From Escherichia phage 4A7, in the sequence record NC_049946.1: DNA of 49,168 nt; one strand, 5' to 3'. The notes under the pieces are model-generated. The model saw only the letters and a list, made by a program, of their open reading frames with translations, made no database searches and had not been told where the DNA came from. Position numbers and translations under genes: made by a program. Below, piece after piece: positions 21,648 through 46,324 of the stretch (position 1 is its first letter; the number at the start of each line of letters is the position of its first letter).

Positions 21648-21677
21648 AAAACTCCTGACCGCATTATAAAAACGGTC

Positions 21678-23291: not shown

Positions 23292-23321
23292 GCGTCAATA
23301 CGGTGCTCCGTTGACGCTTAC

Positions 23322-23462
23322 TATAATGGCGTGACCGCTGATAAAAATATCCGATTTGGAGGGCAGACGAATACTGGAGAACGACATCTGTTTGGCCATA
23401 TTCGCAATTTCCGCATATGGCATAAAGAATTAAATGACAGGCAATTAAAAGAGGTCGTATGA
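23322..23462 (+). pseudogene. stf: displaced 3' end of stf (43 codons) downstream of the IS
   Basis: After removing the IS and one TSD copy, the stf frame continues (GVTADKNIRF...LKEVV) to a TGA at 23460-23462 that overlaps the ATG of the next gene. Confidence 0.6.
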
Positions 23463-23737: not shown

Positions 23738-23749
23738 AAGGAGGAAATA

Positions 23750-24043: not shown

Positions 24044-24134
24044 AAAAAGGTGAGCTGTATATGCAACGGAGGAAGAAACCCCGTTGCTGGAAGCCAGGAA
24101 AAAGTATCGGGTGTTGCTGTCCTCGGATGTTGTG

Positions 24135-24992
24135 CTAATTGGGTGATAACAGATCCTGTGTATGGGAGTTTCCCTTTTTGCGTGCGTTGATGCTGGTAAC
24201 GGCAAACGTCATGATGAACAAAACCGCGAATAAGACGACAATCGTCGGAGCTGGTGCGCTGTCGATAAAAAAGGACAACCAGACACCAGTCATTGACACT
24301 ATTACCGATATGCCAGTCGCCAGTAGGAGCGCAATATGAAAGCGTTGTGTCAGGAGTACCGCAATGGCGCCAGGCGCAATGAGCAGAGAAATGGAGAGAA
24401 TGATACCTACCGCTTTCAGCGTCGCCACAATGGTCAGAGAGACCATGCACAGCAGCCCATAATGCAGCCATCTCGTATGCAAACCGCTTACCTGCGCCTG
24501 TTGATAATCAAAGCTGAACAGCAAAAAATCCCGCCATTTTACGCTAATAACAAGTGTAACCAGCCCGGCAATAATCATCGTCTGGATTATATCGCCGATG
24601 GTTATCCCGAGCATGTCGCCGAAAAGAATATGGTCAAGATGTACGTCTGGTTTGACTGCAATATACAAGATCAGACCTGCGGCAAACATGCCAGAAAAAA
24701 CAATCCCCATCACTGTATCTTGCTTGATTCGGCTGTTGTCTTTCAGGTATCCCGTCGCCACCGCGCAGAATACTCCGGCGACGAATGCCCCTGTAGCCAA
24801 AGGTAACCCCAGAATCCAGGCAAGCACGATGCCAGGAAAAACCGCATGACTCATCGCGTCACCCATCAGTGCCCAACCTTTCAGGACCAGAAAGACCGAC
24901 AGCAGCGCACAGGGTATGGAAACTACCAGTGAAATCAGCAGTGCGTGACTCATAAAGGTGAACTGCAGTGGCTCCAGTAATAATGCCATCAT
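24135..24992 (-). CDS. sitD: Mn/Fe ABC transporter permease SitD
   Basis: 285-aa polytopic membrane protein, last gene of the sitABCD-type operon, overlapping sitC. Confidence 0.85.
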   Translation of the reverse strand: MMALLLEPLQFTFMSHALLISLVVSIPCALLSVFLVLKGWALMGDAMSHAVFPGIVLAWILGLPLATGAFVAGVFCAVATGYLKDNSRIKQDTVMGIVFSGMFAAGLILYIAVKPDVHLDHILFGDMLGITIGDIIQTMIIAGLVTLVISVKWRDFLLFSFDYQQAQVSGLHTRWLHYGLLCMVSLTIVATLKAVGIILSISLLIAPGAIAVLLTQRFHIALLLATGISVIVSMTGVWLSFFIDSAPAPTIVVLFAVLFIMTFAVTSINARKKGNSHTQDLLSPN

Positions 24993-25846
24993 GAGCGATC
25001 CTCCAGCGCCTTATGCGCACGCCGACGATTTGCCAAAAGCCCATGGGTGGGCGCAAAGACAAATGCTAAAAGAAACAGCAGTGTCTGCGCCACCACGATG
25101 ATTCCACCTGTCGCGCCGTCCAGAAAGTAACTGACCCACGCGCCGAGGAAACTGGTTACACTGCCAATAGTTACAGCAATCATGAGCAGGCGGGGAAAAC
25201 GATCGGTTAACAACCATGCTGTTGCACCGGGAGTCACCACCAGACAGATCACCAGAAAGGCACCAACCGTTTGCAGCGCCGCAACGGTCGAAACCGACAG
25301 CAGGGTGAAGAAGAGGAGTTTTAATCTGCCCGGATGCAATCCAATAGCACGGGCGTGATTCTCGTCGAAAAAGGTCACCATAAGATCTTTCCATTTGAAA
25401 AAAAGCACGATGATCGAGAGAATGCCAATGATAGTGAGTTGCAGGATATCCGCCGGATCGATTGCCAGAATATTGCCCAGGACGATGGTCTGAATGTTCA
25501 CAGATGTCGGGTTCAATGACACCATAAACAGCCCCAGGCCAAAAAAGGACGAGAAGATCAGACCGATGATGGCATCTTCTTTTAAGCGGGTGCGTTGGTT
25601 AAGAAACAGCATGCTGCCCGCAGCCAGTCCGCCGGAAAAGAAGGCTCCCAGAGAAAACGGAAGCCCCAGCATATATGCCCCCGCAACACCCGGGACAATA
25701 GAGTGCGACAACGCATCGCCAATCAGCGACCAGCCTTTTAGCATCAGATAGCATGACAGGAAAGCGCAGAGACCGCCGACCATCGCCGAGACCCACATCG
25801 CATTGAGCATATATTCATAGCTGAAGGGTTCCAGTAGCACGTTCAT
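24989..25846 (-). CDS. sitC: Mn/Fe ABC transporter permease SitC
   Basis: 285-aa polytopic membrane protein, paralogous to sitD; overlaps sitB. Confidence 0.85.
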
Positions 25847-26670
25847 CTTTCTTCCCTCTGCACCGCTGACGGTCGATGAGCCACAAAAGGGCGTTCATCG
25901 TCAGTAATAATGCTTTCTTCCGAGCCGTTAAGTGTGACATGGCGCAGTACGCCGCTAAAAGCCAGCTCTAGGTTCTCGGCTGTAAAAGTGGTGTCTGTCG
26001 GCCCGCTTGCCAGGACGGTGCCTTTGACCATGACCGTATAATCGCAAAATGTCGTGACGGATCCGAGATTGTGTGTTGAGACAAGCATCGTTTTGCCTTC
26101 CGCGCGTAACTCCCTCAACAGGCTGATGATTTTGGCTTCGGTTTTCACATCAACGCCAGTAAAAGGTTCATCCAGCAGGATCACATCACCCTGCTGTGCA
26201 ATCGCTCTCGCCAGAAAGACGCGTTTCTTTTGTCCACCGGAAAGCTCGCCGATTTGTCGATGGCGAAAATTCACCATATCGACACGTTCCAGCGCATCGG
26301 TGACAATTTGACGATCCCTCTTTTTGGCGATACGCAACATACCCATATGCCCATAGCGGCCCATCATCACCACATCTTCCACCAGTACAGGAAATGACCA
26401 GTCAACCTCTTCTGACTGAGGGACGTAGGCAACCAGGTTTTTCTGTAACGCCTGTCGCGTGGGAATACCCAGAACAGATATCTTTCCGCTGGTCAGACGC
26501 ACAAATCCCATAATCGCTTTAAACAACGTCGATTTTCCGGAACCGTTTACCCCAACCAGAGCGGCAATAGATCCACTTGGTACTGTGAAGGATGCATCGC
26601 GCAGTGCTGTGTGCCCGTTATGCCAGGTGACAGCAACATCATTAACGACAATGCCTGCAGATTGCATCAT
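25843..26670 (-). CDS. sitB: Mn/Fe ABC transporter ATP-binding protein SitB
   Basis: Walker [13 protein letters not shown] signature LSGGQKKR, Walker B ILLDEP. Confidence 0.9.
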
Positions 26671-27584
26671 TATTTCTCCCTTTTCCCGGCTTTAATTCCC
26701 TGTACCAGCGTACTGGTAGTAACCTTAAGAAGGTCGATATACGTCGGTACCGGGCCGTTTTCTGTGCTCAGGGAATCGACATAGAGCACACCGCCGTAGT
26801 GTGCGCCGGTTTCACGCGCAACCTGACGCGCTGGTTTATCGGAAATCGTACTCTCGCTAAAGACTGCCGGGATATGATTTTTCTTAACTATATCAACAAC
26901 CTTACGTACCTGCTGCGGTGTTCCTTGTTGATCGGCATTAATCGGCCACAGATAAAGCTCTTTTAGCCCCAAATCGCGTGCGAGATAAGAAAAAGCCCCT
27001 TCACTGGTGACCATCCATCGCTGATTCTCAGGGAGTTCCGTAATCTGCTTACGCAGGGGGGCAAGGGTTTGGGTAATCTTGGCTTTATAAGTATCGGCAT
27101 TGCGTTGGTAGGTTTGTGCATTTGCCGGATCGTATTTTATCAACGCATCACGAATATTATCGACGTAAATCAGAGCATTATCTGGCGACATCCATGCATG
27201 GGGGTTAGGTTTGCCCTCATAGGGTCCTTCGGTGATCCCTACAGGCGTCACACCCGAAGAGACAATTACTTCTGGAACCCCATTGAGATGCTGGTAAAAG
27301 CGTTGGAACCACAATTCCAGATTCATACCATTGGCGAGAATCAGTTGTGCCCCCTGCGCACGTTTAATATCGCCAGGGGTAGGCTGATACTCATGAATTT
27401 CTGCACCAGGCTTGGTTATGGATGAGACTTCTGCAGCATCTCCCGCCACGTTTTTGGCCATATCCGCGATGATGGTAAATGTTGTAATGACCTTAAATTT
27501 TTCAGTTGCACTTGCCTGAAATGCGATCGAGCAGGTGAGTGCGAGGCCCCCCAAGAGCATGGTTACTTTTTTTATTGAGCGCAT
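26670..27584 (-). CDS. sitA: periplasmic Mn/Fe-binding protein SitA
   Basis: 304 aa with signal peptide; cluster-9 (MntC/YfeA/SitA-type) solute-binding protein; first gene of the operon. Confidence 0.9.
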
Positions 27585-33289: not shown

Positions 33290-33364
33290 GGCTGAACTCC
33301 TGAAAATGGCTGTGAAAATATCGCCTGCGAAATGCCGGGCTGATTAGGTAAACAGGAAAGGGGA

Positions 33365-33775
33365 TTAGTGATTCAGGCCGTTGCCGCGTCCGTCGAGAAA
33401 AACTTCCACGAGCAAATCACGGGTATAAGTGCGCTCGATGCCGCGATGCAGATAAAGCCGTCCGCGTAAATTAGCTGATGCAGTCCAGGTACCATCTTTG
33501 TGTTTGACCAGCATTCCTGGCATGACCGCACCGCGATTAACGGTCTGCGTTCCGTAATGTTGATGAACCATAAAAACTCCTGCCCGTAAGCTGGGCTGCT
33601 GAACATATAGAGACTTCTGCGCGTATTCAGGCGGTGGATGGCCGCCGGTTGTCATAACTAAGCCGCCTCGTTGAAGCGACTGAGGTATGAGGTGTTGAGT
33701 TGATTTCAGCTGGTCACACCGACGTTCACGCGTCCGCTTCACCCCTCGCACTCCCCGGAGCCTGCTGAAATTCAA
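33365..33775 (-). CDS. hypothetical protein, first ORF downstream of the putative pL (start uncertain; the listed ORF begins at TTG and an internal ATG is at 33655)
   Basis: Occupies the N/kil/cIII position; Arg-rich N-terminal extension; no lambda N similarity recognised. Confidence 0.35.
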
Positions 33776-33849
33776 GCTGCGGATCTAAGCGGTCATCGCA
33801 ACGGTGAATCAGGTGATTGCCGTATCGTTGTGTTGTTGCGACATGGTGA

Positions 33850-33895
33850 TAATAGCTATTGTTATTGGCTGTATCAATACTTATTGCTATTGATT
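33850..33895. promoter_or_regulatory. putative oL/pL operator region
   Basis: GCTATTGTTAT and ATTGCTATTG motifs here recur in the cI-cro intergenic region (36281-36321); location left of the cI-proximal cassette mirrors lambda oL. Confidence 0.35.
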
Positions 33896-34009
33896 GATGT
33901 GTTTTGATATTAACTGTTTGATAGCAAAAAGAATTAATTTTGTGACTTGTATCGCATAGCGATAACTGAAGGGAGGATGTGGTGGTTTTTCGAACGGTTT
34001 GTGTGATGA

Positions 34010-34042
34010 GGGGACAAAAGAAAACCCGGCACGGTGGCCGGG
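34010..34042 (-). terminator. intrinsic terminator ending the cI-cassette transcript (timm-like)
   Basis: On the minus strand: stem CCCGGC/GCCGGG with loop CACCGT, followed by TTTTCTTTTG, 5 nt after the stop of the 125-aa gene. Confidence 0.5.
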
Positions 34043-34046
34043 ATTC

Positions 34047-34424
34047 TTACGCAGGTAGGTAAAGATATGATTGTGGTGGCTTAATATTACTACCTAGAGC
34101 AGAGATAGGAATTGGTTCTTTATATCTTTCCACTTCACCAATTTTTATTGCGTAGGCCTTTTCTCTACCTGAATAATATGAGTCATAAAATTGCTTAGAA
34201 ATACCTGCGTGTTTTTCCGTCTTTTTCCAAAGAGATTCCGGTTCGTCACTTAGTATTGATTCAATACGGAATTGACCAACAACTTTACCTAATGGCATCG
34301 TGGCATAAATAACAACGGTGCTAATTTGCGGATTTTTGAATATACCTTTACGAAACTCGAACCGCTTTGTTCCGTTCAATATTTTTTCTGCAAACTCAGG
34401 CTTAATGGATAATAAAACTTTCAT
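34047..34424 (-). CDS. ASCH-domain (PUA-like fold) protein, cassette gene 2
   Basis: 125 aa; N-terminus MKVLLSIKPEFAEKILNGTKRFEFRKG carries the ASCH-type GxKxxExR signature; AT-rich codon usage; overlaps the upstream gene by 23 bp. Confidence 0.6.
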   Translation of the reverse strand: MKVLLSIKPEFAEKILNGTKRFEFRKGIFKNPQISTVVIYATMPLGKVVGQFRIESILSDEPESLWKKTEKHAGISKQFYDSYYSGREKAYAIKIGEVERYKEPIPISALGSNIKPPQSYLYLPA

Positions 34425-35475
34425 TTATCTTGCCTAACTCGATGATCTTTAAGAACTGCTCATTTGTGAGTTTAAAGTGACTCCATCGGAATGCACGCGA
34501 ACCATTTAGCCCCACATGATCTATTAAAATAGCACGATTGGGTCTCTTTGGCAAAGACAGATTGTATGTGAATCTTATAATGAAAGGGTATCGACGTTCT
34601 TTATAGATTTTTCTGAGTTCATCTTCAGAAAATACGCTAAAACGAATACAATAGTCTACAAAACTATCTTCGCTTAAAAATTCAGAAATATTTTTTACGC
34701 TCTCAACTACACATAATGTACTGGCTACAGAACGATAGCGAGCTGGCCCTTTTTTGTCTCCGGTTCTATAGATGACAATGATATCTCCTCTTTTCATTCC
34801 CATCACAGAACGCATTCCACATATGTAAATTTTATGAATGCTGTTAGCATGGGATATATCTTTGACAATATCTGGTGATTCATTTACAAGTTTTGAATCA
34901 GGGAATAGTCTAGTGTGATATTCGGGATAAATCGCCAGTAAATATTTGTTGGCCCTTGATGTCATTATTCGAGGGTAATCTAATAAAATATCACCATAAG
35001 GCTCATGCAAAGACCTCGCATATACAAACTCTTTCCCGTTATGTGTTTCTTTTTCACCATGAATGTAAAATCCGTACGTTTGGAAAAGTTTTATTAGATG
35101 GACGTGTTTGTCGAAAACAGTAACATAAATATCATCAGATTTTGATGAAAATGCATGGTCAAACGCTTTTTTTAGAAATCGTTGTCCGCGAAGGGTGCCT
35201 TTAGATTCAAATTTGAATGTTCCTATCTTTAGATGACGTCCTGGTGGGAGCGCTGGATTAATGTCATTTGCATCATCATTTTCTTTTAGATACATAAAAC
35301 CTTCGATTTTATGCTTGTCATCATAGAGCACATAAGCTGATTCTCCTTCTCTGGCTTTTTTTTCTAACCAAAGAGGAAACTCTTTATAATCTTTTTTTAA
35401 AGAGTCAAAAAATGGGTCATTGTGATCAAAATCAGAGAATTTCTCATATTTTAAAGTATCCATTAAGTTCTCCAT
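34402..35475 (-). CDS. unknown 353-357-aa protein, cassette gene 1 (likely start at the Met at 35463 with a GGAG RBS)
   Basis: Long AT-rich ORF immediately downstream of cI on the same strand; C-terminal half has a PUA/EVE-like pattern (KRGDIIVIYRTGDKKG...VVESVK); no catalytic motif recognised. Confidence 0.6.
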   Translation of the reverse strand: MENLMDTLKYEKFSDFDHNDPFFDSLKKDYKEFPLWLEKKAREGESAYVLYDDKHKIEGFMYLKENDDANDINPALPPGRHLKIGTFKFESKGTLRGQRFLKKAFDHAFSSKSDDIYVTVFDKHVHLIKLFQTYGFYIHGEKETHNGKEFVYARSLHEPYGDILLDYPRIMTSRANKYLLAIYPEYHTRLFPDSKLVNESPDIVKDISHANSIHKIYICGMRSVMGMKRGDIIVIYRTGDKKGPARYRSVASTLCVVESVKNISEFLSEDSFVDYCIRFSVFSEDELRKIYKERRYPFIIRFTYNLSLPKRPNRAILIDHVGLNGSRAFRWSHFKLTNEQFLKIIELGKINESFIIH

Positions 35476-35543
35476 TCTAAAATGAATAATTAAGTTGTTT
35501 TACTGAATGAGCACAATGCCCGGTTGATAATTTTTAATTGGTA

Positions 35544-36236
35544 CTATCCATGCTTCCTATACGTCTGCGGCATGCTCCCAATAACTTTCCCGAAGATAAA
35601 TACCCGGTTCATCTCATCTTTCTCGATCGGGTCCCACGGTGAGTAGCTTTTGTTATCAGAGATAACCAGCAGCTTATCCTTCATCATTTGCAGGCGCTTT
35701 ACATGGGCTGTGTCGTCGTACAGAAACGCATAGATACCATCACCGTCGAAAGATTTAACCGTGATATCAACGAATAGAAGATCACCAGGTTCAATCGTTC
35801 CTGACATGCTGTCACCGCGTACGTTAATGATGCGGATATTTTCTGCCTTCCTACCATCGAACATGTGACGAGCATCGTCAAACGAGTACTCAACCGAGCG
35901 TAGAACTTCTACAAACTCACGGTTGATGACTCCCGGCCCGGCACTCACTTCTATATCAAGAACGTCAATCTTGAAGTATTTGGGATGGTTGGCAGTAGGC
36001 TTCCCTAATTGTTGACCGTCATTTCTCATCGGGCCTATGCCTGATGAGAGCCACTCTGTTCGAACACCCAATGCATTAGCTATTTCAACAATTTTTGTTG
36101 AGCCGCGCGCGTTGCCGCTTGTCAGTCTCCAGATTGTGGGTTGAGCTACGCCAGACGCCTTTGCAAGAGCGCCTTGAGACATTCCAGATTGTTCCATCGC
36201 TAGGTTTAAGCGATCAGCAAGAGTTTCTTTTTTCAT
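35544..36236 (-). CDS. cI: CI-type repressor (N-terminal HTH, C-terminal S24 LexA-like peptidase)
   Basis: HTH (QGALAKASGVAQPTIWRL), then the S24 catalytic motifs GDSM and the downstream Lys (HVKRL). ATG at 36236; the listed ORF extends to a TTG at 36272. Confidence 0.8.
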   Translation of the reverse strand: MKKETLADRLNLAMEQSGMSQGALAKASGVAQPTIWRLTSGNARGSTKIVEIANALGVRTEWLSSGIGPMRNDGQQLGKPTANHPKYFKIDVLDIEVSAGPGVINREFVEVLRSVEYSFDDARHMFDGRKAENIRIINVRGDSMSGTIEPGDLLFVDITVKSFDGDGIYAFLYDDTAHVKRLQMMKDKLLVISDNKSYSPWDPIEKDEMNRVFIFGKVIGSMPQTYRKHG

Positions 36237-36248
36237 AAGTTTTAATTT

Positions 36249-36330
36249 ATACGCTTGCGTATTGATGGTCAAAACACGTTTTGCTATTGTTATGATTAAT
36301 ACGCATTGCTATTATTTATTCATTGTAATA
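36249..36330. promoter_or_regulatory. putative oR/pR-pRM operator region
   Basis: Perfect palindrome ATACGCTTGCGTAT at 36249-36262 plus GCTATTGTTAT / ATTGCTATT repeats shared with the putative oL; lies between divergent cI and cro. Confidence 0.4.
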
Positions 36331-36346
36331 CCAATAGGAATTAATA

Positions 36347-36574
36347 ATGACAAATCAAACCATTCAACTCGCAATCAGTATTACAGGTAGTCAAAAACGA
36401 CTGGCAGATCTATGCGGTGTAGCCCAGCCCACTGTTTGGCGTTGGCTACACGGTGGCGGAATTGATGCCCGCTATGTAATGAAAATTGTCTCAGCCACTG
36501 GTGGAAAGATTAAACCAGCAGATATTCGTCCCGACCTCGCACCATTGTTTAACGCGAGTAATTCTGCCGCCTAA
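36347..36574 (+). CDS. cro: Cro-like HTH regulator (YdaS-like)
   Basis: 75 aa, HTH (RLADLCGVAQPTVWRWL), divergent from cI. Confidence 0.65.
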   Translation: MTNQTIQLAISITGSQKRLADLCGVAQPTVWRWLHGGGIDARYVMKIVSATGGKIKPADIRPDLAPLFNASNSAA

Positions 36575-36598
36575 TCTGCGGCGTTAACTGATAAGGCA

Positions 36599-37144
36599 AT
36601 GACTATGCAACCACTTACATACCAACAGACTAGCGGATTTAGCCCGACTGCGGTGATAAATCGTTCTCAAACAAAACAGGCGCCAGGCCACGAAAAAATC
36701 CGTGATGCCGTTCGCGCCTGGTCGGCTGCAGATAATCAGGATGTTGTTGCCGCACTCATTGTGAATGAGTATCGGGAGCAGGGCGGCGGCACCATCGATT
36801 TTCCTGATGATGTCAGCCGTGCACGCCAGAAGCTGTTCCGCTTCCTCGATAACAAATTCGATTCTGAAAAATACCGAAATAACGTGCGTGAACTGACCCC
36901 GGCAATTCTGGCGGTACTACCGCTGGAATATCGCGGCCACCTGGTTGAGCAGGATAGCTTCATGGCTCGGCTGGCTGAAATGGAAAAGGAACTCAGTGAG
37001 GCAAAACAGGCTGTCATTCTCAACGCACCACGCCACCAGAAACTGAAGGAGATGAGTGAAGGCATTGTGTCGATGTTTCGTGTGGACCCGGATCTGGCTG
37101 GTCCACTGATGGCGATGGTCACCACCATGCTGGGGGCAATATGA
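36599..37144 (+). CDS. YdaT-like protein (CII functional analogue)
   Basis: 181 aa; shares YdaT motifs as recalled (EYREQGGG and LTPAILAVLP); lies between cro and O. Confidence 0.55.
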   Translation: MTMQPLTYQQTSGFSPTAVINRSQTKQAPGHEKIRDAVRAWSAADNQDVVAALIVNEYREQGGGTIDFPDDVSRARQKLFRFLDNKFDSEKYRNNVRELTPAILAVLPLEYRGHLVEQDSFMARLAEMEKELSEAKQAVILNAPRHQKLKEMSEGIVSMFRVDPDLAGPLMAMVTTMLGAI

Positions 37145-37230
37145 CAGGTTCGGAAATGGCGAAAGCCGGTCTGCGCGAACAGAACCGACTTTCAGGTGCA
37201 AATCGTAACACACTCATTGCGGGAGGAATT

Positions 37231-38160
37231 ATGGCAAACACTGCTGAGATATTCAATTTTCCAGTGCCGGATGTGGCACAAAAGGAGCCGCGCGTGGCAG
37301 ATCTCGATGATGGTTATACGCGCATTGCAAATGAGTTGCTGGAAGCTGTGATGCTGGCCGGATTAACACAGCACCAGCTTCTGGTCTTCCTGGCTGTCAT
37401 GCGCAAAACATATGGCTTTAATAAAAAACTGGATTGGGTGAGCAACGAGCAACTTTCCGAGTTGACCGGGATATTGCCGCACAAGTGTTCTGCTGCAAAA
37501 AGTGTTCTGGTAAAGCGTGGGATTTTTATTCAGAGCGGGCGGAATATCGGCATTAATAATGTGGTCAGTGAATGGTCAACATTACCCGAATCAGGTAAGA
37601 AAAATAAAGTTTACCTGAAAGAGGTAAATTTACCTGAATCAGGTAAGAAAAGTTTACCCAAATCAGGTAAAGGCGTTTACCCGAATCAGGTAAACACAAA
37701 AGACAAACTAACAAAAGACAATATAAAACCTTTTTCGTCCGAGAATTCTGACGAATCCTCTGACCAGCCAGAAAACGATCTTCCTGTGGTGAAACCGGAT
37801 GCTGCAATTCAGAGCGGCAGCAAGTGGGGGACAGCAGAAGACCTGACCGCCGCAGAGTGGATGTTTGACATGGTGAAGACCATCGCGCCATCAGCCAGAA
37901 AACCAAATTTTGCAGGGTGGGCTAACGATATCCGCCTGATGCGTGAACGTGACGGACGTAACCACCGCGACATGTGCGTGCTGTTCCGCTGGGCATGCCA
38001 GGACAACTTCTGGTCCGGTAACGTGCTGAGTCCGGCCAAACTCCGCGACAAGTGGACTCAACTCGAAATCAACCGTAACAAGCAACAGGCTGGCGTGACA
38101 GCCGGAAAATCAAAACTCGACCTGACAAACACTGACTGGATTTACGGGGTGGATTTATGA
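37231..38160 (+). CDS. O: replication initiator O
   Basis: From MANTAEIFNFP onward it resembles lambda O as recalled (VADLDDGYTRIANELLEA, LAVMRKTYGFNK, SEW); the iteron origin is embedded. ATG at 37231 follows a GGAGG RBS; the listed ORF starts at 37141. Confidence 0.8.
   Translation: MANTAEIFNFPVPDVAQKEPRVADLDDGYTRIANELLEAVMLAGLTQHQLLVFLAVMRKTYGFNKKLDWVSNEQLSELTGILPHKCSAAKSVLVKRGIFIQSGRNIGINNVVSEWSTLPESGKKNKVYLKEVNLPESGKKSLPKSGKGVYPNQVNTKDKLTKDNIKPFSSENSDESSDQPENDLPVVKPDAAIQSGSKWGTAEDLTAAEWMFDMVKTIAPSARKPNFAGWANDIRLMRERDGRNHRDMCVLFRWACQDNFWSGNVLSPAKLRDKWTQLEINRNKQQAGVTAGKSKLDLTNTDWIYGVDL
37581..37740 (+). repeat. replication origin: five iteron-like repeats TTACCYRAATCAGGTAA plus an A/T-rich tract
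   Basis: Repeats start near 37582, 37609, 37631, 37654 and 37677 (spacing 22-27 bp), each with internal dyad symmetry TTACC/GGTAA, followed by the A-rich tract 37695-37740; all lie inside O. Confidence 0.7.
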
Positions 38161-38858
38161 AAAACATCGCCGCACAGATGGTTAACTTTGACCGTGAGCA
38201 GATGCGCCGGATCGCCAACAACATGCCGGAACAGTACGACGAAAAGCCGCAGGTACAGCAGGTAGCGCAGATCATCAACGGTGTGTTCAGCCAGTTACTG
38301 GCAACTTTCCCGGCGAGTCTGGCTAACCGTGACCAGAACGAACTGAACGAAATCCGCCGCCAGTGGGTTCTGGCTTTCCGGGAAAACGGGATCACCACAA
38401 TGGAACAGGTTAACGCAGGAATGCGCGTAGCCCGTCGGCAGAATCGACCATTTCTGCCATCACCCGGGCAGTTTGTTGCATGGTGCCGGGAAGAAGCATC
38501 CGTTATCGCCGGACTGCCAAACGTCAGCGAGCTGGTTGATATGGTTTACGAGTATTGCCGGAAGCGAGGCCTGTATCCGGATGCGGAGTCTTATCCGTGG
38601 AAATCAAACGCGCACTACTGGCTGGTTACCAACCTGTATCAGAACATGCGGGCCAATGCGCTTACTGATGCGGAATTACGCCGTAAGGCCGCAGATGAGC
38701 TTGTCCATATGACTGCGAGAATTAACCGTGGTGAGGCGATCCCTGAACCAGTAAAACAACTTCCTGTCATGGGCGGTAGACCTCTAAATCGTGCACAGGC
38801 TCTGGCGAAGATCGCAGAAATCAAAGCTAAGTTCGGACTGAAAGGAGCAAGTGTATGA
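38157..38858 (+). CDS. P: replication protein P (DnaB helicase loader)
   Basis: 233 aa, near-identical to lambda P as recalled (MKNIAAQMVNFDREQMRRIANNMPEQYDEKPQVQQVAQIINGVFSQLLATFPASLANRDQNE...). Confidence 0.95.
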   Translation: MKNIAAQMVNFDREQMRRIANNMPEQYDEKPQVQQVAQIINGVFSQLLATFPASLANRDQNELNEIRRQWVLAFRENGITTMEQVNAGMRVARRQNRPFLPSPGQFVAWCREEASVIAGLPNVSELVDMVYEYCRKRGLYPDAESYPWKSNAHYWLVTNLYQNMRANALTDAELRRKAADELVHMTARINRGEAIPEPVKQLPVMGGRPLNRAQALAKIAEIKAKFGLKGASV

Positions 38859-39157
38859 CGGGCAAAGAGGCAATTATTCATTACCTGGGGACGCATAAGA
38901 GCTTCTGTGCACAGGACGTTGCCGCGGTAACAGGCGCAACCGTAACCAGCATAAATCAGGCTGTGGCTAAAATGGCGCGGGCAGGAATCCTGGTCGTTGA
39001 TGGTAAGGTCTGGCGAACGGTGTATTATCGGTTCGCTACCAGAGAAGAACGGGAAGGAAAGGTGAGCGCGAATTTGATTTTTAAGGAGTGTCGCCAGAGT
39101 GCCGCGATGAAACGGGTATTGAGGGTATATAAAAGAACATCAATGGGTACACAATGA
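38855..39157 (+). CDS. ren: Ren
   Basis: Matches lambda Ren as recalled (MTGKEAIIHYLGTHKSFCAQDVAAVTGATVTSINQA...). Confidence 0.9.
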   Translation: MTGKEAIIHYLGTHKSFCAQDVAAVTGATVTSINQAVAKMARAGILVVDGKVWRTVYYRFATREEREGKVSANLIFKECRQSAAMKRVLRVYKRTSMGTQ

Positions 39158-39224
39158 TGAAACAGGTGAGTTGAGTTCAAACTGTAGTACAATTCTCTCC
39201 AGTTTGAACAGGAAAGAATATGCT

Positions 39225-39557
39225 ATGAACCCTTATATTTATCTTGGTGGTGCAATACTTGCAGAGGTCATTGGTACAACCTTAATGAAGTTTTCAGAAG
39301 GTTTTACACGGTTATGGCCATCTGTTGGTACAATTATTTGTTATTGTGCATCATTCTGGTTATTAGCTCAGACGCTGGCTTATATACCTACAGGGATTGC
39401 TTATGCTATCTGGTCAGGAGTCGGTATTGTCCTGATTAGCTTACTATCATGGGGATTTTTCGGCCAACGGTTGGACCTGCCAGCCATTATAGGCATGATG
39501 TTGATTTGTGCCGGTGTGTTGGTTATTAATTTATTGTCACGAAGCACACCACATTAA
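39225..39557 (+). CDS. emrE: small multidrug resistance efflux transporter EmrE
   Basis: 110 aa, matches E. coli EmrE as recalled (MNPYIYLGGAILAEVIGTTLMKFSEGFTRLWPSVGTIICYCASFWLLAQTLAYIPTGIAYAIWSGVGIVLISLLSWGFFGQRLDLPAIIGMMLICAGVL...); emrE is DLP12-associated in K-12. Confidence 0.9.
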   Translation: MNPYIYLGGAILAEVIGTTLMKFSEGFTRLWPSVGTIICYCASFWLLAQTLAYIPTGIAYAIWSGVGIVLISLLSWGFFGQRLDLPAIIGMMLICAGVLVINLLSRSTPH

Positions 39558-39566
39558 AAATAATTT
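39552..39566. repeat. 15-bp direct repeat CATTAAAAATAATTT, left copy (overlaps the emrE stop)
   Basis: Identical 15-mer recurs at 41625-41639; the two copies bracket the ybcK segment. Confidence 0.5.
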
Positions 39567-39812
39567 ATTTTTAAACGACTAAAATATGGAGGTTCGTATA
39601 TTTGTATGGGCCTCGTTTTATGCTTTTTGTTAATGTCTTTAGTTTTTATTCATTCTTTTGATCTTTCAAGACCATGGTGTAAGAAAATTGCAATACGATT
39701 ATTGTTGTATATTCAAGATAATGTGACCTTAATTGTCTTTTTAAATAAAAATTAAACAAAAATCATATCTCACCACTAAGGTTTATAAAAGCATACTTTA
39801 GCAGGTGTCACC

Positions 39813-41339
39813 ATGAAAAAAGCCATAGCATATATGCGATTTTCATCACCAGGTCAGATGTCTGGTGATTCATTAAACCGCCAGAGAAGGCTTATTACTG
39901 AATGGCTAAAGGTAAATAGTGATTATTACCTTGATACCGTAACGTATGAAGATTTGGGGTTAAGCGCATTCAATGGAAAGCATGCACAATCAGGAGCTTT
40001 TTCGGAATTTTTAGATGCTATAGAACATGGTTACATATTGCCAGGGACTACATTGTTAGTTGAAAGTCTGGACAGACTTTCAAGAGAAAAAGTCGGTGAA
40101 GCGATTGAGCGTCTGAAATTGATTTTGAATCACGGTATTGATGTTATAACTCTTTGCGATAATACAGTCTATAATATAGACTCATTGAATGAGCCATATT
40201 CATTAATAAAAGCCATACTTATAGCACAAAGGGCAAATGAAGAAAGCGAGATAAAGTCAAGTCGGGTTAAATTATCATGGAAGAAAAAACGGCAGGATGC
40301 ACTGGAATCAGGCACGATTATGACGGCGTCTTGTCCGAGATGGCTCTCATTGGATGACAAAAGAACAGCTTTTATTCCAGACCCCGACAGGGTGAAAACG
40401 ATTGAGCTAATTTTTAAACTCAGGATGGAAAGGCGATCATTGAATGCAATAGCTAAGTATTTAAATGATCATGCTGTAAAAAATTTTTCAGGAAAAGAAA
40501 GTGCATGGGGGCCTTCTGTAATTGAAAAATTATTAGCGAATAAAGCTCTGATAGGTATATGCGTACCTTCATATCGTGCAAGAGGGAAAGGGATAAGTGA
40601 AATCGCTGGCTATTATCCCAGAGTCATATCAGATGATTTGTTTTACGCTGTACAGGAAATTCGGTTGGCACCTTTTGGTATTAGCAATAGTAGCAAGAAT
40701 CCTATGCTAATAAATCTACTTCGAACAGTTATGAAGTGTGAGGCTTGTGGTAATACCATGATTGTTCATGCGGTATCTGGACGTTTGCATGGCTATTATG
40801 TTTGTCCGATGAGAAGATTACATCGATGTGACAGGCCATCAATAAAAAGAGATTTGGTTGATTATAATATCATTAATGAATTGCTTTTTAATTGTAGCAA
40901 AATTCAACCAGTTGAAAACAAGAAAGATGCTAATGAAACTTTAGAGTTAAAAATTATTGAGCTTCAGATGAAAATTAATAATTTAATCGTTGCATTGTCT
41001 GTCGCGCCTGAAGTTACCGCTATAGCAGAGAAAATAAGACTATTAGATAAGGAATTACGAAGGGCTTCGGTATCATTAAAAACTTTGAAGAGTAAAGGGG
41101 TGAGTTCACTTGGTGATTTTCATGCTATTGATTTAACCAGTAAAAATGGGCGAGAGCTATGTCGTACACTTGCCTATAAAATATTCGAAAAAATTATAAT
41201 TAATACAGATAATAAAACCTGTGATATCTATTTTATGAATGGCATTGTTTTTAAACACTATCCTTTAATGAAAGTAATATCCGCCCAGCAGGCGATAAGT
41301 ACTCTTAAATATATGGTTGATGGTGAGGTTTATTTTTGA
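39813..41339 (+). CDS. ybcK: large serine recombinase (YbcK-like)
   Basis: 508 aa; N-terminal resolvase/invertase catalytic domain (AIAYMRFSSPGQ...SLNRQ), central recombinase domain, Cys-rich zinc ribbon (CEACGN...CPMRRLHRC) and C-terminal coiled coil; AT-rich. Confidence 0.85.
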   Translation: MKKAIAYMRFSSPGQMSGDSLNRQRRLITEWLKVNSDYYLDTVTYEDLGLSAFNGKHAQSGAFSEFLDAIEHGYILPGTTLLVESLDRLSREKVGEAIERLKLILNHGIDVITLCDNTVYNIDSLNEPYSLIKAILIAQRANEESEIKSSRVKLSWKKKRQDALESGTIMTASCPRWLSLDDKRTAFIPDPDRVKTIELIFKLRMERRSLNAIAKYLNDHAVKNFSGKESAWGPSVIEKLLANKALIGICVPSYRARGKGISEIAGYYPRVISDDLFYAVQEIRLAPFGISNSSKNPMLINLLRTVMKCEACGNTMIVHAVSGRLHGYYVCPMRRLHRCDRPSIKRDLVDYNIINELLFNCSKIQPVENKKDANETLELKIIELQMKINNLIVALSVAPEVTAIAEKIRLLDKELRRASVSLKTLKSKGVSSLGDFHAIDLTSKNGRELCRTLAYKIFEKIIINTDNKTCDIYFMNGIVFKHYPLMKVISAQQAISTLKYMVDGEVYF

Positions 41340-41624
41340 GTAATAATCACTTTTTCAACCGTGCTATGGTATGAAAGTAAAGTAACTAATATGATATTAA
41401 CTATCTTGAACGAAGCGCCCTGAGCTATAGTTTTACTATAGGCACTGTCACTGGATGTTGGCATTCTTGCTCTAGTAGCTCAACAATACCCAATCACAAA
41501 ACAATTCACTGATAACAAACTTTGTGCACGTGCTTGGTTATGGCGAACAGGTGATGTTAACCTCTTGCCAGAATGCCACTCCACTTCATTAAGTATCTGA
41601 GCACCGAGAGGCTGGTCACGCCCC

Positions 41625-41639
41625 CATTAAAAATAATTT
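41625..41639. repeat. 15-bp direct repeat CATTAAAAATAATTT, right copy
   Basis: Perfect match to 39552-39566. Confidence 0.5.
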
Positions 41640-41663
41640 CTTTTGAATCGAGTGAAATAGGTT

Positions 41664-41690
41664 AGCCCGCATAAGTGCGGGCTGCTTTTT
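41664..41690 (+). terminator. intrinsic terminator between convergent ybcK-side and esterase genes
   Basis: Stem AGCCCGC/GCGGGCT with loop ATAAG, followed by GCTTTTT. Confidence 0.55.
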
Positions 41691-42732
41691 ACAGGTCAGC
41701 GTTTGTTTTTTGTTGTTGGGTAGCGGTTTTTATGGGGGTTCCCAGGTTTTTAGTAAACCACTCAACAACTCTGTTTATAATAATTGGCTGATACCATGTA
41801 TTATCGCCATGCTCGGCCCCTTCTACCAGCACGTACTCAGCGTTATCACCGTTCTTCTTCAACATCCTGAATAGTTTGGCGCTTTGCTCAGGTGAAACCA
41901 GAGTGTCTTTGCTACCATGCATAATAAGAAATGGGGGTTTTACTCCTTTCATATGTCCGATTGGACTGGCGTTTAGCGCTTTTTCTTTTGACGCTGTGAT
42001 GGGGGCTCCCGCAAAATTTCTGAATGCAGGGCCATTGATCATTAAGGCTTCGGTTACGGCAGGAGAGCGATGAACCTCCTGCACTGATTCAGGGAACCCC
42101 TCGCCAATATTCAACAAGTCAGAAATCCCATAAAGTGTGGCAACTGCCTGAACATCTGAGGATTGCTGAAGAAAGTCACCTTTATCAAAGGTTTTGTCAC
42201 CATTTGTAGTTCCCATCATCTGGGCAAGCCATCCACCGGCAGAGTCACCCAGAACTCCGATTCTTTGAGGATCAATCCCATAATTGCTGGCATGCTCTCT
42301 CAGGTAACGTATTGCAGCTTTTCCATCCTCAACTGGTGCTGGAAATGTATCAGGAATTGTTCTGTATTCTACAGCGGCCACAACAAAACCAGCTTCTGCC
42401 AGAGCCATTCTCATTTCAATAAATTTGTCATGTTCAGAAGACATGAATCCGCCGCCGGGATAATAAATAATGGCTGGTTTTAAATCATTTGTTCGCGGGA
42501 CAAGAACTGACATGTGAAGCTGTCTGACAGAACGAGTTCCTTTTATCTGGGAATAAACAACATCACCAATGAGATCGACCTGGTTTCTGGTCGGTGAAAC
42601 ACTAATGATATCTGCACCCGGGGTGTAACCAGGAAGATTAGTCTGGACAGGTGTTGCACAACTCCCGACCGACATGGCCATTGACATACCATACAATAGT
42701 GTTGCAGATGATAATATCTTGTTAATTTTCAT
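41689..42732 (-). CDS. alpha/beta-hydrolase fold esterase/lipase, probable lipoprotein
   Basis: 347 aa; signal peptide with lipobox-like VGSC; HSL-family motifs YYPGGGF and GDSAGG (nucleophile elbow GxSxG); C-terminal His. Confidence 0.7.
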   Translation of the reverse strand: MKINKILSSATLLYGMSMAMSVGSCATPVQTNLPGYTPGADIISVSPTRNQVDLIGDVVYSQIKGTRSVRQLHMSVLVPRTNDLKPAIIYYPGGGFMSSEHDKFIEMRMALAEAGFVVAAVEYRTIPDTFPAPVEDGKAAIRYLREHASNYGIDPQRIGVLGDSAGGWLAQMMGTTNGDKTFDKGDFLQQSSDVQAVATLYGISDLLNIGEGFPESVQEVHRSPAVTEALMINGPAFRNFAGAPITASKEKALNASPIGHMKGVKPPFLIMHGSKDTLVSPEQSAKLFRMLKKNGDNAEYVLVEGAEHGDNTWYQPIIINRVVEWFTKNLGTPIKTATQQQKTNADL

Positions 42733-43179
42733 GTTTTACATGCCTTGACTTATCGGATGAAATTCTCTTACTGAATTTAACGGCAGTTTAATAGCCGTAC
42801 AACTCGTGGTAGCCAGGGAAATATCCCAGTCGTGGTTAAGGTTGTACTTGACGGCTATTATTTCAACAATGCTTAAAGTGAGAGCTTAAGGTTATGCGTA
42901 TGTTTTACAGTCCGAGTAGATTCTGACCAATAGCTTCTTTGTATAATTCTGTCAGAAATAAATCTTGGCTTGCATGAAGTTTGAGACCTTATCTTGTTTG
43001 ATTATGAATAATCAATTCGCCATAATTGTATCACCGGAGCCTGAACAACTCCGGTGACTTCTGCGCTAAACGGGGACGTTTATGCGCACACACAATCCAA
43101 ACTCTCTTCTCCCTTCACAGATGCAGAAATGCACCTGCGTTTTTTTGCATCCAGCGTCTGACCTCTGTGGAGGTGAAGC

Positions 43180-43635
43180 GTGAACCTACCACAAGATGGC
43201 ATCAAACTGCATCGCGGTAACTTCATCGCTATCGGCCAGCAGATCCAGCCTTATCTGGAGGACGGAAAATGCTTTCGCATGGTGCTTAAACCGTGGCGTG
43301 AGAAACGCAGTCTTTCCCAGAATGCACTCAGCCATATGTGGTACAGCGAAATCAGTGAATACCTCATCAGCAGGGGGAAATCGTTCGCTACCGCAGCATG
43401 GGTAAAAGATGCTCTCAAACACACATACCTCGGTTATGAAACCAAGGACCTGGTTGATGTCGTAACCGGCGAAATCACTACTATCCAGTCGTTACGCCAT
43501 ACCTCCGATCTTGATACCGGAGAGATGTATGTCTTCCTGTGTAAGGTTGAAGCCTGGGCGATGAATATTGGCTGCCACCTGACTATTCCGCAGAGCTGCG
43601 AGTTCCAGCTGCTGCGCGACAAGCAGGAGGCGTAA
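43180..43635 (+). CDS. ybcN: YbcN-like nin-region protein
   Basis: 151 aa, matches DLP12 YbcN as recalled ([15 protein letters not shown]...). GTG start follows a GGAGG RBS. Confidence 0.75.
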
Positions 43636-43805
43636 TGGCTACACCGCTTATTCGTGTCATGAACGGACACATCTACAAAGTACCAAATCGTCGTAAGCGT
43701 AAACCTGAGCTGAAGCCATCCGAAATACCAACACTGCTCGGGTATACCGCCAGCCTGGTTGATAAAAAATGGTTGCGACTGGCAGCAAGGAGGAATCATG
43801 GCTGA
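43635..43805 (+). CDS. ninE: NinE-like small protein
   Basis: 56-aa basic ORF ([27 protein letters not shown]...), not in the supplied ORF track; coupled by overlaps to ybcN (TAATG) and ybcO. Confidence 0.55.
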   Translation: MATPLIRVMNGHIYKVPNRRKRKPELKPSEIPTLLGYTASLVDKKWLRLAARRNHG

Positions 43806-44088
43806 TTTGAGAAAAGCAGCGCGTGGTCGGGAATGCCAGGTAAGAATCCCTGGCGTATGTAATGGCAATCCTGAAACGTCAGTACTGGCACATATCCGGC
43901 TGGCTGGATTGTGCTGTACCGGTATCAAACCGCCAGACCTGATTGCCACCATTGCATGTTCTGCCTGCCACGACGAAATCGACCGTCGCACGCATTTTGT
44001 TGACGCTGGATATGCAAAAGAATGCGCGCTGGAAGGTATGGCGAGAACACAGGTTATCTGGTTGAAAGAGGGGGTTATTGAGGCGTGA
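43798..44088 (+). CDS. ybcO: YbcO-like protein (DUF1364-type nin gene, Cys-rich)
   Basis: From [28 protein letters not shown] onward it matches DLP12 YbcO as recalled; ATG at 43798 is internal to the listed ORF. Confidence 0.8.
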
Positions 44089-44447
44089 ATACCTACAGCA
44101 TCACATTACCCTGGCCGCCGAGCAATAATCGCTATTACCGCCATAATCGCGGACGCACGCATATCAGCGCAGAGGGGCAGGCATACCGCGATAATGTCGC
44201 CCGAATCATTAAAAACGCAATGCTGGATATCGGCCTGGCTATTCCTGTGAAAATCAGCATTGAGTGCCACATGCCGGATCGCCGTCGCCGTGACCTTGAT
44301 AATCTGCAAAAGGCCGCTTTTGACGCACTCACCAAAGCAGGTTTCTGGCTGGATGATGCTCAGGTCGTTGATTACCGCGTTGTGAAGATGCCCGTTACCA
44401 AAGGTGGGAAGCTGGAGCTGACTATCACTGAACTGGGAGATGAATGA
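44085..44447 (+). CDS. rusA: Holliday junction resolvase RusA
   Basis: 120 aa, matches E. coli RusA as recalled ([26 protein letters not shown]...[25 protein letters not shown]). Confidence 0.9.
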
Positions 44448-44584
44448 TGTTTGAGTCTTATATGGCAGAGCGTCTTCGCCGCCGCTGGGTGCGCCTGCGC
44501 TTATATCGTTTTCCTGGTTCTGTTTTGACCGATTACCGAATACTGAAGAATTACGCCAAAACCCTGACAGGAGCAGGAGTATGA
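44444..44584 (+). CDS. ylcG: YlcG-like small protein
   Basis: 46-aa ORF overlapping the rusA stop (ATGATG), in the DLP12 position between rusA and Q; not in the ORF track. Confidence 0.5.
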
Positions 44585-44669
44585 AGTCAGAGATAACAAT
44601 CAACTAATACTGTTTTGTTGATTTTTGCTTGTAATTGGCGTTCTGGTCTGATTTTTGTGGAGTAAGTTG

Positions 44670-45053
44670 ATGCGTGATATTCAGATGGTTCTTGAGCGTT
44701 GGGGAGCGTGGGCGGCTAATAATCATGAAGATGTGACCTGGTCGTCCGTTGCCGCCGGTTTTAAGGGATTAATTCCTTCAAAAGTAAAATCTCGCCCGCA
44801 ATGTTGTGACGATGACGCGATGATCATTTGCGGGTGCATGGCCCGTCTGAAAAAGAACAACAGCGATTTACACGATTTATTAGTAGATTATTATGTATGT
44901 GGTATGACATTCATGTCACTGGCAAGTAAGCATTGCTGCTCGGATGGTTATATCGGGAAAAGGTTACAGAAGGCTGAGGGCATAATTGAAGGGATGTTAA
45001 TGGCATTAGATATCCGGTTAGATATGGATATCGTTGCTAATAATTCTAATTGA
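44670..45053 (+). CDS. Q: late-gene antiterminator Q (phage 82 / DLP12 QuuD type)
   Basis: From [24 protein letters not shown] onward it matches QuuD as recalled; Cys-rich zinc site ([12 protein letters not shown]). Confidence 0.85.
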
Positions 45054-45241: not shown

Positions 45242-46324
45242 TTAGAACTGATAAACCAGACCTACAGCGACGATGTCGTCGGTATCAATACCAGCTGTTT
45301 TGGTAAACTTACTATCGTCAATTAAGTTGATTTTGTAATCAACAAAAGTGGACATGTTTTTATTAAAGTAGTAAGTAGCACCGACATCGACATACTTGAC
45401 TAAGTCTCGGTCACCATGAACACCAAGGTCTTTACCTTTTGACTGAAGGTAAGCAACAGATGGTCGCAGACCGAAGTCAAACTGATATTGTGCTACTGCT
45501 TCAAAGTTTTGTGCTTTGTTTGCAATATGGTTATTACCAAAAACGGTCATATTCTGAGTTTCAGAATATGTGGTAGCCAGATAGATATTGTTCGCATCAT
45601 ATTTCAGGCCTGCAGCCCATACTTCCGCATTTTTGCCGGAGGCATTGAATTTGCTCTTACCATAGGCGACCTGACCGTCAGTGCGATCTGATTTAGCATA
45701 GGTTGCACCCACGCCGAATCCTTCATACTCATAAGTAGTGGAGAAACCGAAACCATCACCATTGACTTCAGTTACGTCAGTGCGGTCATTTTTACCCTGA
45801 TACTGAGCAGCAAAGTTCAGGCCATCGACCAGACCAAAGAAGTCGTTGTTACGATAAGTTGCAACACCAGTAGTGCGACCAGTCATGAACACATCTGTTT
45901 GGGTCCAGGTATCACCACCGAATTCTGGCAGGACGTCAGTCCACGCACCGATGTCGTATGCTACACCGTAGTTACGGCCGTAATCGATTGAGCCGTAATC
46001 ACCAAATTTCAGGCCTGCAAATGCAAGACGGGTTTTGTCTTTGGAAGAACCTTGAGATTCAGCACGGTTGCCTTTGAATTCATATTCCCACTGACCGAAA
46101 CCAGTCAGTTGATCGTTGATTTGGGTTTCACCTTTGAAGCCAAGACGGGCATAAGTAGTATCACCATCATCTGCATCATTAGAGGAGAAGTAGTGCTTGG
46201 CATTAACTTTCCCGTATAGATCCAGCTTGTTACTGTCTTTATTATAAATTTCAGCTGCCTGAGCAGACATCGCCATCAGTACTGATGCAGCTACAGCAGA
46301 AATTGCCACTGTTAATTTTTTCAT
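45242..46324 (-). CDS. nmpC: OmpC/OmpF-family general porin (NmpC / Lc-like phage porin)
   Basis: 360 aa; signal peptide [23 protein letters not shown], porin motifs ([35 protein letters not shown]) and a C-terminal Phe. Confidence 0.9.

Follow-up and report, generated by a model that had tools for sequence, protein, structure and literature searches.

We analysed the early control region of Escherichia phage 4A7 (sequence record NC_049946.1; 49,168 nucleotides, the whole of which is called the window here), at positions 33,776 to 37,144, together with the operon that contains the gene Q. The region is the early lysis/lysogeny control module of a functional lambdoid coliphage and is of the phi80/HK639 type. 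It has no recognisable N gene and no nut or put site, and Q lies behind a separate promoter (P_nin) that carries a conserved inverted repeat. With slightly more confidence than doubt, we read it as an N-less module in which Q is switched on from its own promoter, gated by CII. The module is of an already known kind and occurs in an already sequenced phage. The separate Q-operon promoter is what makes the N-less design workable; it had not been mentioned in the original prediction, a note made on this region from the sequence alone, all of whose elements we found where it had placed them.

The predicted sigma-70 promoter P_nin (Table 1) contains an inverted repeat, or box, that covers its −35 hexamer and spacer and lies 150 nt upstream of ninB. 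This is the sole perfect match to TTGATT-N6-AATCAA in the window, and 100 shuffles gave none. Of 53 unique promoter variants taken from IMG/VR and GenBank, 48 conserve the TTGAT-N8-ATCAA core (perfect in 40 and with one mismatch in 8). The box-bearing variants have 28 different spacers, and the −10 element is invariant and at a fixed distance. Conservation falls to background directly upstream of the box, at the mosaic junction. Perfect TTGATT-N6-AATCAA boxes with differing spacers are present in HK639 and Enterobacter phage CobraSix, the box is also found in phage 82 and DLP12, and phi80 and HK225 have the symmetric variant TTGATA-N6-TATCAA. As sigma-70 contacts do not explain a conserved half-site within the spacer, the pattern indicates a dimeric DNA-binding protein, as far as sequence can tell. 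A looser pattern scan of IMG/VR for the nin leader gave 120 hits, 36 of them genuine (few including the cII gene) and the rest mostly random.

Judged from its sequence, CII is the best candidate for the protein that binds this box. The gene lies directly after the cro analogue and ahead of the replication genes. YdaT-like motifs had been pointed out in its product (EYREQGGG at residue 57 and LTPAILAVLP at residue 99), and the Pfam search agrees: the 181-aa open reading frame (ORF) at 36599-37144 matches PF06254 (YdaT_toxin) with an E-value of 7.6e-30 and 103.6 bits (cut-off 21). It also matches PHROG 163, “CII-like transcriptional activator” (E 4e-67). CII is 67% identical to its counterpart in phi80, 66% to that of mEp237 and 52-55% to those of HK639 and HK225, and it shares 35% identity over 96 aa with Rac YdaT. 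The only sequence matches in the PDB are YdaT structures from CP-933P-type prophages (8bt1, E 2e-4; 3c4r, E 7e-4). The alignment to these covers the recognition helix, QKLFRF here and QKIFRW in CP-933P YdaT, with the common motif QK[LIV]FR[FWY]. A single-sequence AlphaFold2 model of CII is all-helical and unreliable (pLDDT 39.5, pTM 0.21).

Published footprinting identified TTGATT-N6-AATCAA as the site of CP-933P YdaT, which Rac YdaT cross-recognises; the two proteins, just 30% identical to each other, recognise each other’s sites. In addition, 63 of 80 loci selected by this cII contain the nin block, vs 4 of 80 selected by a lambda-type cII. We favour CII as the binder because the box equals the footprinted YdaT site, because YdaT proteins cross-recognise their sites, because the recognition helix is conserved, and because the nin block and this cII co-occur. 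CII would thus bind the TTGATT-N6-AATCAA box of P_nin, although both this binding and the sign of its effect are things that we infer from sequence. Covariation of the box half-sites with CII, as suggested by the TTGATA box of phi80, proved unusable, since promoters that accompany identical cII genes also differ at position 6 of the half-site.

What CII would do at P_nin is suggested by Escherichia coli K-12. Its DLP12 prophage has an identical, intact promoter and no cII, yet promoters supplied by an insertion sequence (IS) have been reported necessary for adequate expression of K-12 rusA. The default state of P_nin therefore looks to be OFF. YdaT is a demonstrated activator in both Rac and CP-933P according to published work, and a lysogen cannot afford a constitutive promoter before Q. 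For these three reasons we lean toward activation rather than repression, with modest confidence. Q, and hence the late genes, would then be coupled to derepression of pR by a relay of transcription factors from CI to CII to Q, which would replace N antitermination.

The original prediction had found no recognisable N or nut, and our searches bear this out and extend it to put. Neither of the two findings that it had named as refuting it, an N homologue with nut sites and a 181-aa protein unrelated to YdaT, was made. Lambda N, phi80 N and HK022 Nun gave nothing better than E = 0.1 in tblastn against the window. None of the three was found in the 80 IMG/VR loci with the same cII; in the control set, lambda N was detected in 58 of 80 loci with a lambda-type cII. 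Scanning the transcribed strand of 33572-33845 and 36316-36700 for boxA (CGCTCTTA-like, up to one mismatch) returned no site, and the hits in the window are scattered elsewhere. From HK022 putL, HK022 putR and HK639 putL we derived the two-stem put core CGGC.CG...GTCGG...GGCG.GG..AGGA.GA..G.CAAT, four sub-patterns of which had zero matches in either early leader. Rfam gave nothing at gathering thresholds across the whole window, and at E-value thresholds only sub-threshold chance hits in the two leaders. The Rac small RNA kilS was considered as a homologue of the pL leader and dropped, having no similarity to it.

The first ORF after pL (33365-33775) had been noted to lack N-like sequence, and Pfam and PHROG searches identify only Kil in it. 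The C-terminal 68 aa are Kil, and the N-terminal 68 aa have no match in either database. We compared 54 distinct homologous sequences from IMG/VR. Variable sites at codon positions 1:2:3 are distributed 7:10:26 within kil vs 19:12:16 in the upstream extension, and more than 20 close relatives have a stop codon, a 5-nt insertion or a 2-nt deletion that breaks the frame of the extension. Given the lack of codon periodicity and the broken frame, the extension is non-coding. A 10-residue arginine-rich stretch in it was rejected as an N-type arginine-rich motif on the same grounds. Between pL and kil no ORF is conserved, and in phage D2 the break in homology coincides with the kil ATG. A conserved 26-nt block in this leader is also present in phi80, between tL1A and tL1B downstream of N, and in HK639, within an annotated terminator (~917-974 and ~610-656 of the compared stretches, respectively). 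In the window the block is in frame with kil, and the encoded peptide is a polyproline stalling-type motif. From pL to the end of exo there are no terminator-like sites but one weak site inside kil. From these comparisons, the left operon looks like the phi80/HK639 arrangement minus the N/nutL or put segment and the terminator function. After derepression, pL would read through a non-coding leader of about 270 nt directly into kil-gam-bet-exo, and pR would yield Cro, then CII 24-30 nt on, followed by O, P and Ren. The suggestion that delayed-early expression is independent of N-type antitermination is thus supported as plausible.

Transcripts from pR are unlikely to reach Q, judging by the sequence that lies in their path: 3.6 kb of cargo with two predicted terminators and a convergent gene of about 1 kb. 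This cargo (39171-42732, GC 0.39) extends from ren to the nin promoter and encodes an emrE-like SMR transporter, a 508-aa ybcK-like serine recombinase and a secreted alpha/beta hydrolase. DLP12 has ybcL and ybcM in place of the hydrolase.

Several observations weigh against a relay through CII. In published data, racR is expressed less when YdaT occupies the racR-ydaS intergenic region. The four lambda-type-cII loci that have a nin block keep the box, which is perfect in three and degenerate in the fourth, whose block is divergent, and sampled IMG/VR leaders include one further lambda-type case with the box. The box thus goes where the nin block goes, without an absolute requirement for a YdaT-type cII, though three of the four blocks match variants from the other set, consistent with recent exchange. 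The box is centred near −27 and overlaps the core promoter, a position typical of repressors. Clear plaques are formed by phi80 cII mutants, which are viable, so that CII is neither essential nor the sole route to Q in phi80. Rac and CP-933P have their YdaT box at the ydaS/ydaT junction, and the window has no strong box there, only weak box-like sites near the cro-cII junction, with two core mismatches each, at the place expected of a pRE-type site (36341-36358 and 36651-36668). Finally, both terminators before Q are predictions, and pR read-through to Q may still occur. Most of these points would also suit a real P_nin whose box is bound by a host factor or a product of the nin operon, or one that CII represses, delaying Q as lambda paQ does. 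We consider this rather unlikely. All 12 specified bases agree with the footprinted YdaT site and the nin block is linked to the YdaT-type cII, while the apparent silence of the promoter in K-12, which lacks cII, means that repression by CII cannot explain the OFF state. Among host factors, FNR is disfavoured by the spacing of its half-sites (N4, vs N8 here).

Other explanations dispense with CII at P_nin altogether. The pL leader might harbour a novel cis-acting RNA or a very divergent small N-like peptide that replaces N or put. It is 90-100% conserved across 73 related loci, contains the block common to the tL1 regions of phi80 and HK639, and has at 33600-33700 a more stable fold than shuffles (z = −2.7); moreover, N proteins are too diverse for exclusion by homology searches. 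This remains improbable, as the arginine-rich frame has no start codon context, no periodicity and breaks in close relatives, the leader as a whole is no more stably folded than shuffles (z = −0.23), it tolerates 5- and 8-nt indels, put core and boxA are both absent, and the weak site within kil leaves no obvious terminator to suppress before the end of exo. We give slightly less credence still to the idea that there is no special mechanism, with pR leaking through terminators that are only predicted, in a cargo that is a recent insertion, and P_nin a minor constitutive promoter. The low-GC cargo was clearly acquired, and the distance from cII to the box ranges from 3.2 to 7.9 kb among relatives. 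Nevertheless, the plaque-forming isolates Lambda_4C10, 1W, 3W and PhiR47_2 have the same cargo layout, the convergent gene lies in the path, and promoter and box are conserved over about 50 variants regardless of the upstream sequence. A toxin-antitoxin pair in place of Cro and CII is suggested by the Pfam names YdaS_toxin and YdaT_toxin and by the published toxicity of over-expressed Rac YdaS and YdaT. This we regard as very improbable, given that the genes diverge from the repressor gene and precede O and P, that CII is 67% identical to the product of the genetically defined phi80 cII, and that YdaS and YdaT proteins were shown in published work to be transcription factors, the analogues of Cro and CII.

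The repressor and operators complete the circuit at its upstream end. CI carries a Peptidase_S24 domain, unlike the small, peptidase-free RacR-type repressor, and BLASTP found no similarity between CI and RacR (best E 2.4). It has Ala99-Gly100, Ser143 and Lys180, of which Gly100, Ser143 and Lys180 are invariant in an alignment with CI of HK639, HK022 and phi80. These features fit a repressor of the lambda CI/LexA type that should undergo SOS self-cleavage. Its identity is 46% to CI of HK639 and 24% to that of phi80. The original prediction had assigned oL and oR from shared motifs, and this assignment is upheld, as the shared words are confined to the two operator regions and promoter-like sites coincide with them. 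In the 49,168 bases there are exactly two copies of GCTATTGTTAT (33855 and 36283) and exactly two of ATTGCTATT (33883 and 36305), one per proposed operator in each case. The degenerate 11-mer TWGCTATTRWT has four perfect copies in the window, every one within the oL/oR regions; with up to one mismatch there are 15 matches, vs 5.4 +/- 2.6 in shuffles, none of which reached 15. In a lysogen, CI made from pRM would repress pL and pR via the repeated TTGCTATTG-type operators. The −10 of the pRM candidate ends 8 nt ahead of the cI start codon ATG, which by comparison with lambda and CP-933P PaaR2 probably makes the cI transcript leaderless. The −35 and −10 of this promoter candidate flank the perfect palindrome ATACGC-TT-GCGTAT (36249-36262), and a half-copy, ATACGC, is found at 36299 within oR; together they may represent a second class of operator, for example for Cro.

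Cro belongs to the YdaS family and is encoded divergently from the repressor, with operators and promoters in between. It is 58% identical to Cro of HK639, 29% to that of phi80 and 32% to Rac YdaS. The short distance between cro and the next gene was correctly reported as 24 nt (cro stop TAA at 36572-36574, next ATG at 36599). The ATG at 36605, which was chosen by the GenBank annotators, has better Shine-Dalgarno spacing, and the gap is then 30 nt. This gap is 30 nt in phi80, 29 nt in HK639 and 2 nt in mEp237 and related phages. The tight junction does not by itself signal the absence of N, as had been argued, because phi80 has the same 30-nt junction yet encodes N with nutL. The related claim that there is no room for nutR or tR1 holds insofar as the junction has no nut site or recognisable terminator, but it is not empty: a GC-rich hairpin spans the cro stop codon. 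This hairpin is kept by position in phi80 and HK639 with different sequences, and it raises the question of a processing site, a pause or Rho entry. By comparison of the sequences, the missing right-hand antitermination site is a trait of the whole group and not of this phage alone, since phi80, which has N, and HK639, which has putL, both are without an annotated nutR or putR. Here cII overlaps O, which leaves no M3 RNA locus like that of phi80 and HK639. Just inside O, a leftward promoter-like site directed into cII (37228-37256, minus strand; TTGAAT, 17-nt spacer, TG-extended CATAAT) could be an oop/M3-type antisense promoter.

The leader of the nin-Q operon folds into two hairpins (minimum free energy −29.3 kcal/mol, z = −6.3). 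Hairpin 1 shows compensatory stem changes, and phi80 keeps its loop on an entirely different stem. Hairpin 2 occurs with two allelic stems, and it encloses and sequesters the start of orf33, a conserved 33-codon gene (ylcH in K-12) that is translationally coupled to ninB. A “terminator” at 43119-43142 was rejected, as it lies within the conserved coding sequence of orf33 and its T-tract varies at wobble positions. The loop of hairpin 1, (C/U)CUGAACAA, resembles the 5′ stem and loop of lambda boxB (CCUGAAAAA / CCUGAAGAA). In mEp237 (~13511-13525), the hairpin 1 loop lies beside a box-like site upstream of a gene other than ninB. The nin promoter of phage 82 and DLP12 is 93% identical in DNA from the box onward. 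For phage 82, the GenBank record X92588 (Mahdi et al., 1996) marks −35 and −10 at the same position, as well as orf33 and orf151, and annotates hairpin 1 as a “possible regulator-binding site.” In the papers that we could read, we found no link of the phage 82/DLP12 inverted repeat overlapping the −35 to YdaT or CII, and a search for a YdaT-DLP12 link returned nothing relevant.

The label phi80/HK639-type is the right one because the identities to HK639 (CI, Cro and CII) and to phi80 (CII) are higher than the 32-35% found with Rac YdaS and YdaT. Phage phi80 (JX871397; cI, gene 30/cro, cII, genes 15/14) shares CII, the 30-nt junction, the GC hairpin over the cro stop, the lack of an annotated nutR and a cargo gene between cI and oL. 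It also has the same promoter, with the TTGATA-N6-TATCAA box, and the hairpin leader and orf33 upstream of a ninB-like gene. It differs in encoding N with nutL and in having tL1A/tL1B downstream of pL, whereas the window is without N and nutL, and in its M3 (oop-like) RNA after cII, its CI and its Cro (24% and 29% identity). HK639 (HM208537) has the closest complete immunity set (CI 46%, Cro 58%, CII 53-55%), no N, no annotated putR and a perfect box in the promoter upstream of ninB. However, a putL-like RNA for RNA-mediated put antitermination follows right after its pL, with annotated terminators downstream, and the window is without the put core.

The description of the module as Rac-like holds for the YdaS/YdaT-type Cro and CII, at the family level only, and fails for the module as a whole, as the repressor is unlike RacR. 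Rac (racR-ydaS-ydaT) and CP-933P (paaR2-ydaS-ydaT) have Cro and CII analogues of the same Pfam families, adjacent and divergent from the repressor, and a kilR-type kil in the left operon with no N known. Their YdaT binds (A/T)TGATT-N6-AATCAA and activates the reverse promoter for the repressor. In contrast to 4A7, with which they share only 32-35% identity and whose repressor is unrelated to RacR, they are cryptic prophages with the box at the ydaS/ydaT junction; here the strong box is at the Q-operon promoter and the phage is complete and plaque-forming. Lambda is similar in topology, in its S24 CI with a probably leaderless pRM transcript, in the rex-position cargo ending at a terminator, and in the Red genes exo-bet-gam, the lambda-type P and the Q-dependent late operon. 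It differs in that the window has no N, nutL, nutR or tR1, CII is of an unrelated family, and Q has its own promoter, whereas Q of lambda relies on N-modified transcription from pR.

Positions 33300-37200 of the window are 100% identical to Escherichia virus Lambda_4C10 (LR595861, Bievrevirus) and to phages 1W and 3W, and ECOR-derived temperate phages (PhiR47_2 and others) are 97-99% identical in parts. We built the map from the annotation of related records and from our own ORF and profile searches (Pfam and PHROG). The minus strand carries, in map order, exo-bet-gam-kil, an intergenic region, two low-GC genes, cI and a second intergenic region. The plus strand carries cro, the 181-aa gene, O (which the 181-aa gene overlaps), P and ren. 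Beyond these come the 3.6-kb low-GC cargo, ninB-ninE-rusA-Q, a porin gene and the lysis genes.

Table 1. Features of the early control module and of the Q operon of phage 4A7 (window positions)
Feature	Position	Strand	Details
kil (KilR-type FtsZ inhibitor, 68 aa)	33365..33571	-	first real gene of the pL operon; PHROG 294, E 1.3e-37
pL leader, untranslated, ~270 nt	33572..33842	-	no N gene, nut or put; upstream ORF part to 33775 non-coding
Conserved 26-nt block ATGACAACCGGCGGCCATCCACCGCC	33630..33655	-	12-residue mini-peptide / hairpin GGCGG-N7-CCGCC; no T-tract here
oL	33848..33896	.	TWGCTATTRWT operator words at 33853 and 33884; inverted copy 33848-33858
pL candidate	33849..33877	-	−35 TTGATA, 17-nt spacer, −10 TATTAT; 10/12 consensus; embedded in operator repeats
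Intrinsic terminator ending the cI-cargo transcript (tImm-like, predicted)	34025..34042	-	6 G-C pairs, then TTTTCTTTT
Cargo gene 2, ASCH-domain protein	34047..34424	-	PF04266, E 2.5e-8; PADLOC PDC-M11B, E 7e-52
Cargo gene 1, 357 aa, acetyltransferase-like N-terminus	34402..35475	-	PADLOC PDC-M11A, E 2e-133; PHROG 6345, 13728
cI repressor, 230 aa	35544..36236	-	helix-turn-helix + Peptidase_S24; PF00717, E 1.5e-18; PF01381; PHROG 4
pRM candidate	36244..36272	-	−35 TTGACC, −10 TAAATT
oR	36273..36340	.	operator words at 36281 and 36306; inverted copy 36328-36340
pR candidate	36287..36315	+	−35 TTGTTA, 17-nt spacer, TG-extended −10 TATTAT
cro, 75 aa, YdaS family	36347..36574	+	PF15943 YdaS_toxin, E 9.6e-15, 54.6 bits vs cut-off 30
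Hairpin over cro stop codon	36566..36582	+	GCCGC-N7-GCGGC; no T-tract; no boxA partner
cII, YdaT/phi80-CII family, 179 aa	36605..37144	+	alternative start 36599 (181 aa)
O, P, ren	37141..39157	+	rest of the pR early operon; PF04492, PF06992, related-record annotation
O	37141-38160	+	
Intrinsic terminator, predicted	39589..39614	+	after emrE-like cargo gene; 11-pair stem, then GTTTTATGCT
Intrinsic terminator, predicted strong	41663..41684	+	after ybcK-like recombinase; 9 pairs, 6 G-C, then CTTTTT
Convergent alpha/beta-hydrolase gene, ~1 kb	41689-42732	-	after terminator 41663-41684
P_nin promoter, sigma-70 (predicted)	42998..43026	+	box TTGATTATGAATAATCAA 42998-43015 = −35 hexamer + spacer; −10 CATAAT 43021-43026
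nin-Q 5′ leader	43031..43088	+	hairpin 1 43031-43057, loop CCUGAACAA; hairpin 2 43062-43088, GGGA loop
nin-Q operon served by P_nin	43082..45053	+	orf33 (ylcH-like), ninB/ybcN-like, ninE, ybcO-like, rusA, small orf, Q (44670-45053)

The two low-GC genes between cI and oL (GC 0.35), in the position of lambda rexAB, were not mentioned in the original prediction. They are adjacent, co-oriented and overlapping, and together comprise both components of PDC-M11, a PADLOC candidate defence system (GevAT). The annotation of PhiR47_2 names cargo gene 1 “GevT toxin” and cargo gene 2 “GevA antitoxin.” The cI transcript probably runs on through this defence cargo to the terminator beyond it, like that of lambda cI-rexAB. 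A literature search on GevAT and on the regulation of Bievrevirus found nothing relevant. Elsewhere in the window, an OmpD/NmpC-like porin gene (45242-46324, minus strand) lies between Q and the holin gene, within the leader of the late operon, as it does in DLP12. Between the tail-fibre genes and int (~20875-27584) are an IS element with three “mobile element protein” ORFs and a sitABCD manganese/iron ABC transporter operon, according to the annotation of Lambda_4C10.

Phage 4A7 offers a clear natural case of a plaque-forming lambdoid phage that lacks detectable N, nut and put, and it poses the question of how Q is reached. The conserved box-bearing promoter ahead of the Q operon offers a concrete and testable answer, in which the link between this promoter and YdaT is the new part. 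The YdaT/CII family gains a candidate second target besides the pRE-like promoter. As a tentative extension, which we hold to be possible rather than probable, phi80, HK639, phage 82 and Bievrevirus-type lambdoids may all time late development by a CII relay at P_nin, which would have let N, nut and put disappear altogether from Lambda_4C10-like phages, and with cross-talk between Rac YdaT and DLP12 as a corollary. DLP12 of K-12 has a perfect YdaT box (NC_000913.3, 572,284-572,301) in an intact promoter upstream of ylcH-ybcN-ninE-ybcO-rusA-ylcG-quuD. The main texts of published transcriptome papers on Rac derepression do not mention the DLP12 nin genes. If the extension is true, Rac YdaT could act on the DLP12 box, and derepression of Rac might in this way reach the DLP12 lysis genes. 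The extension would also explain the right operons without nutR or putR in these prophages, and early-to-late timing would be redrawn for a large group of enterobacterial prophages.

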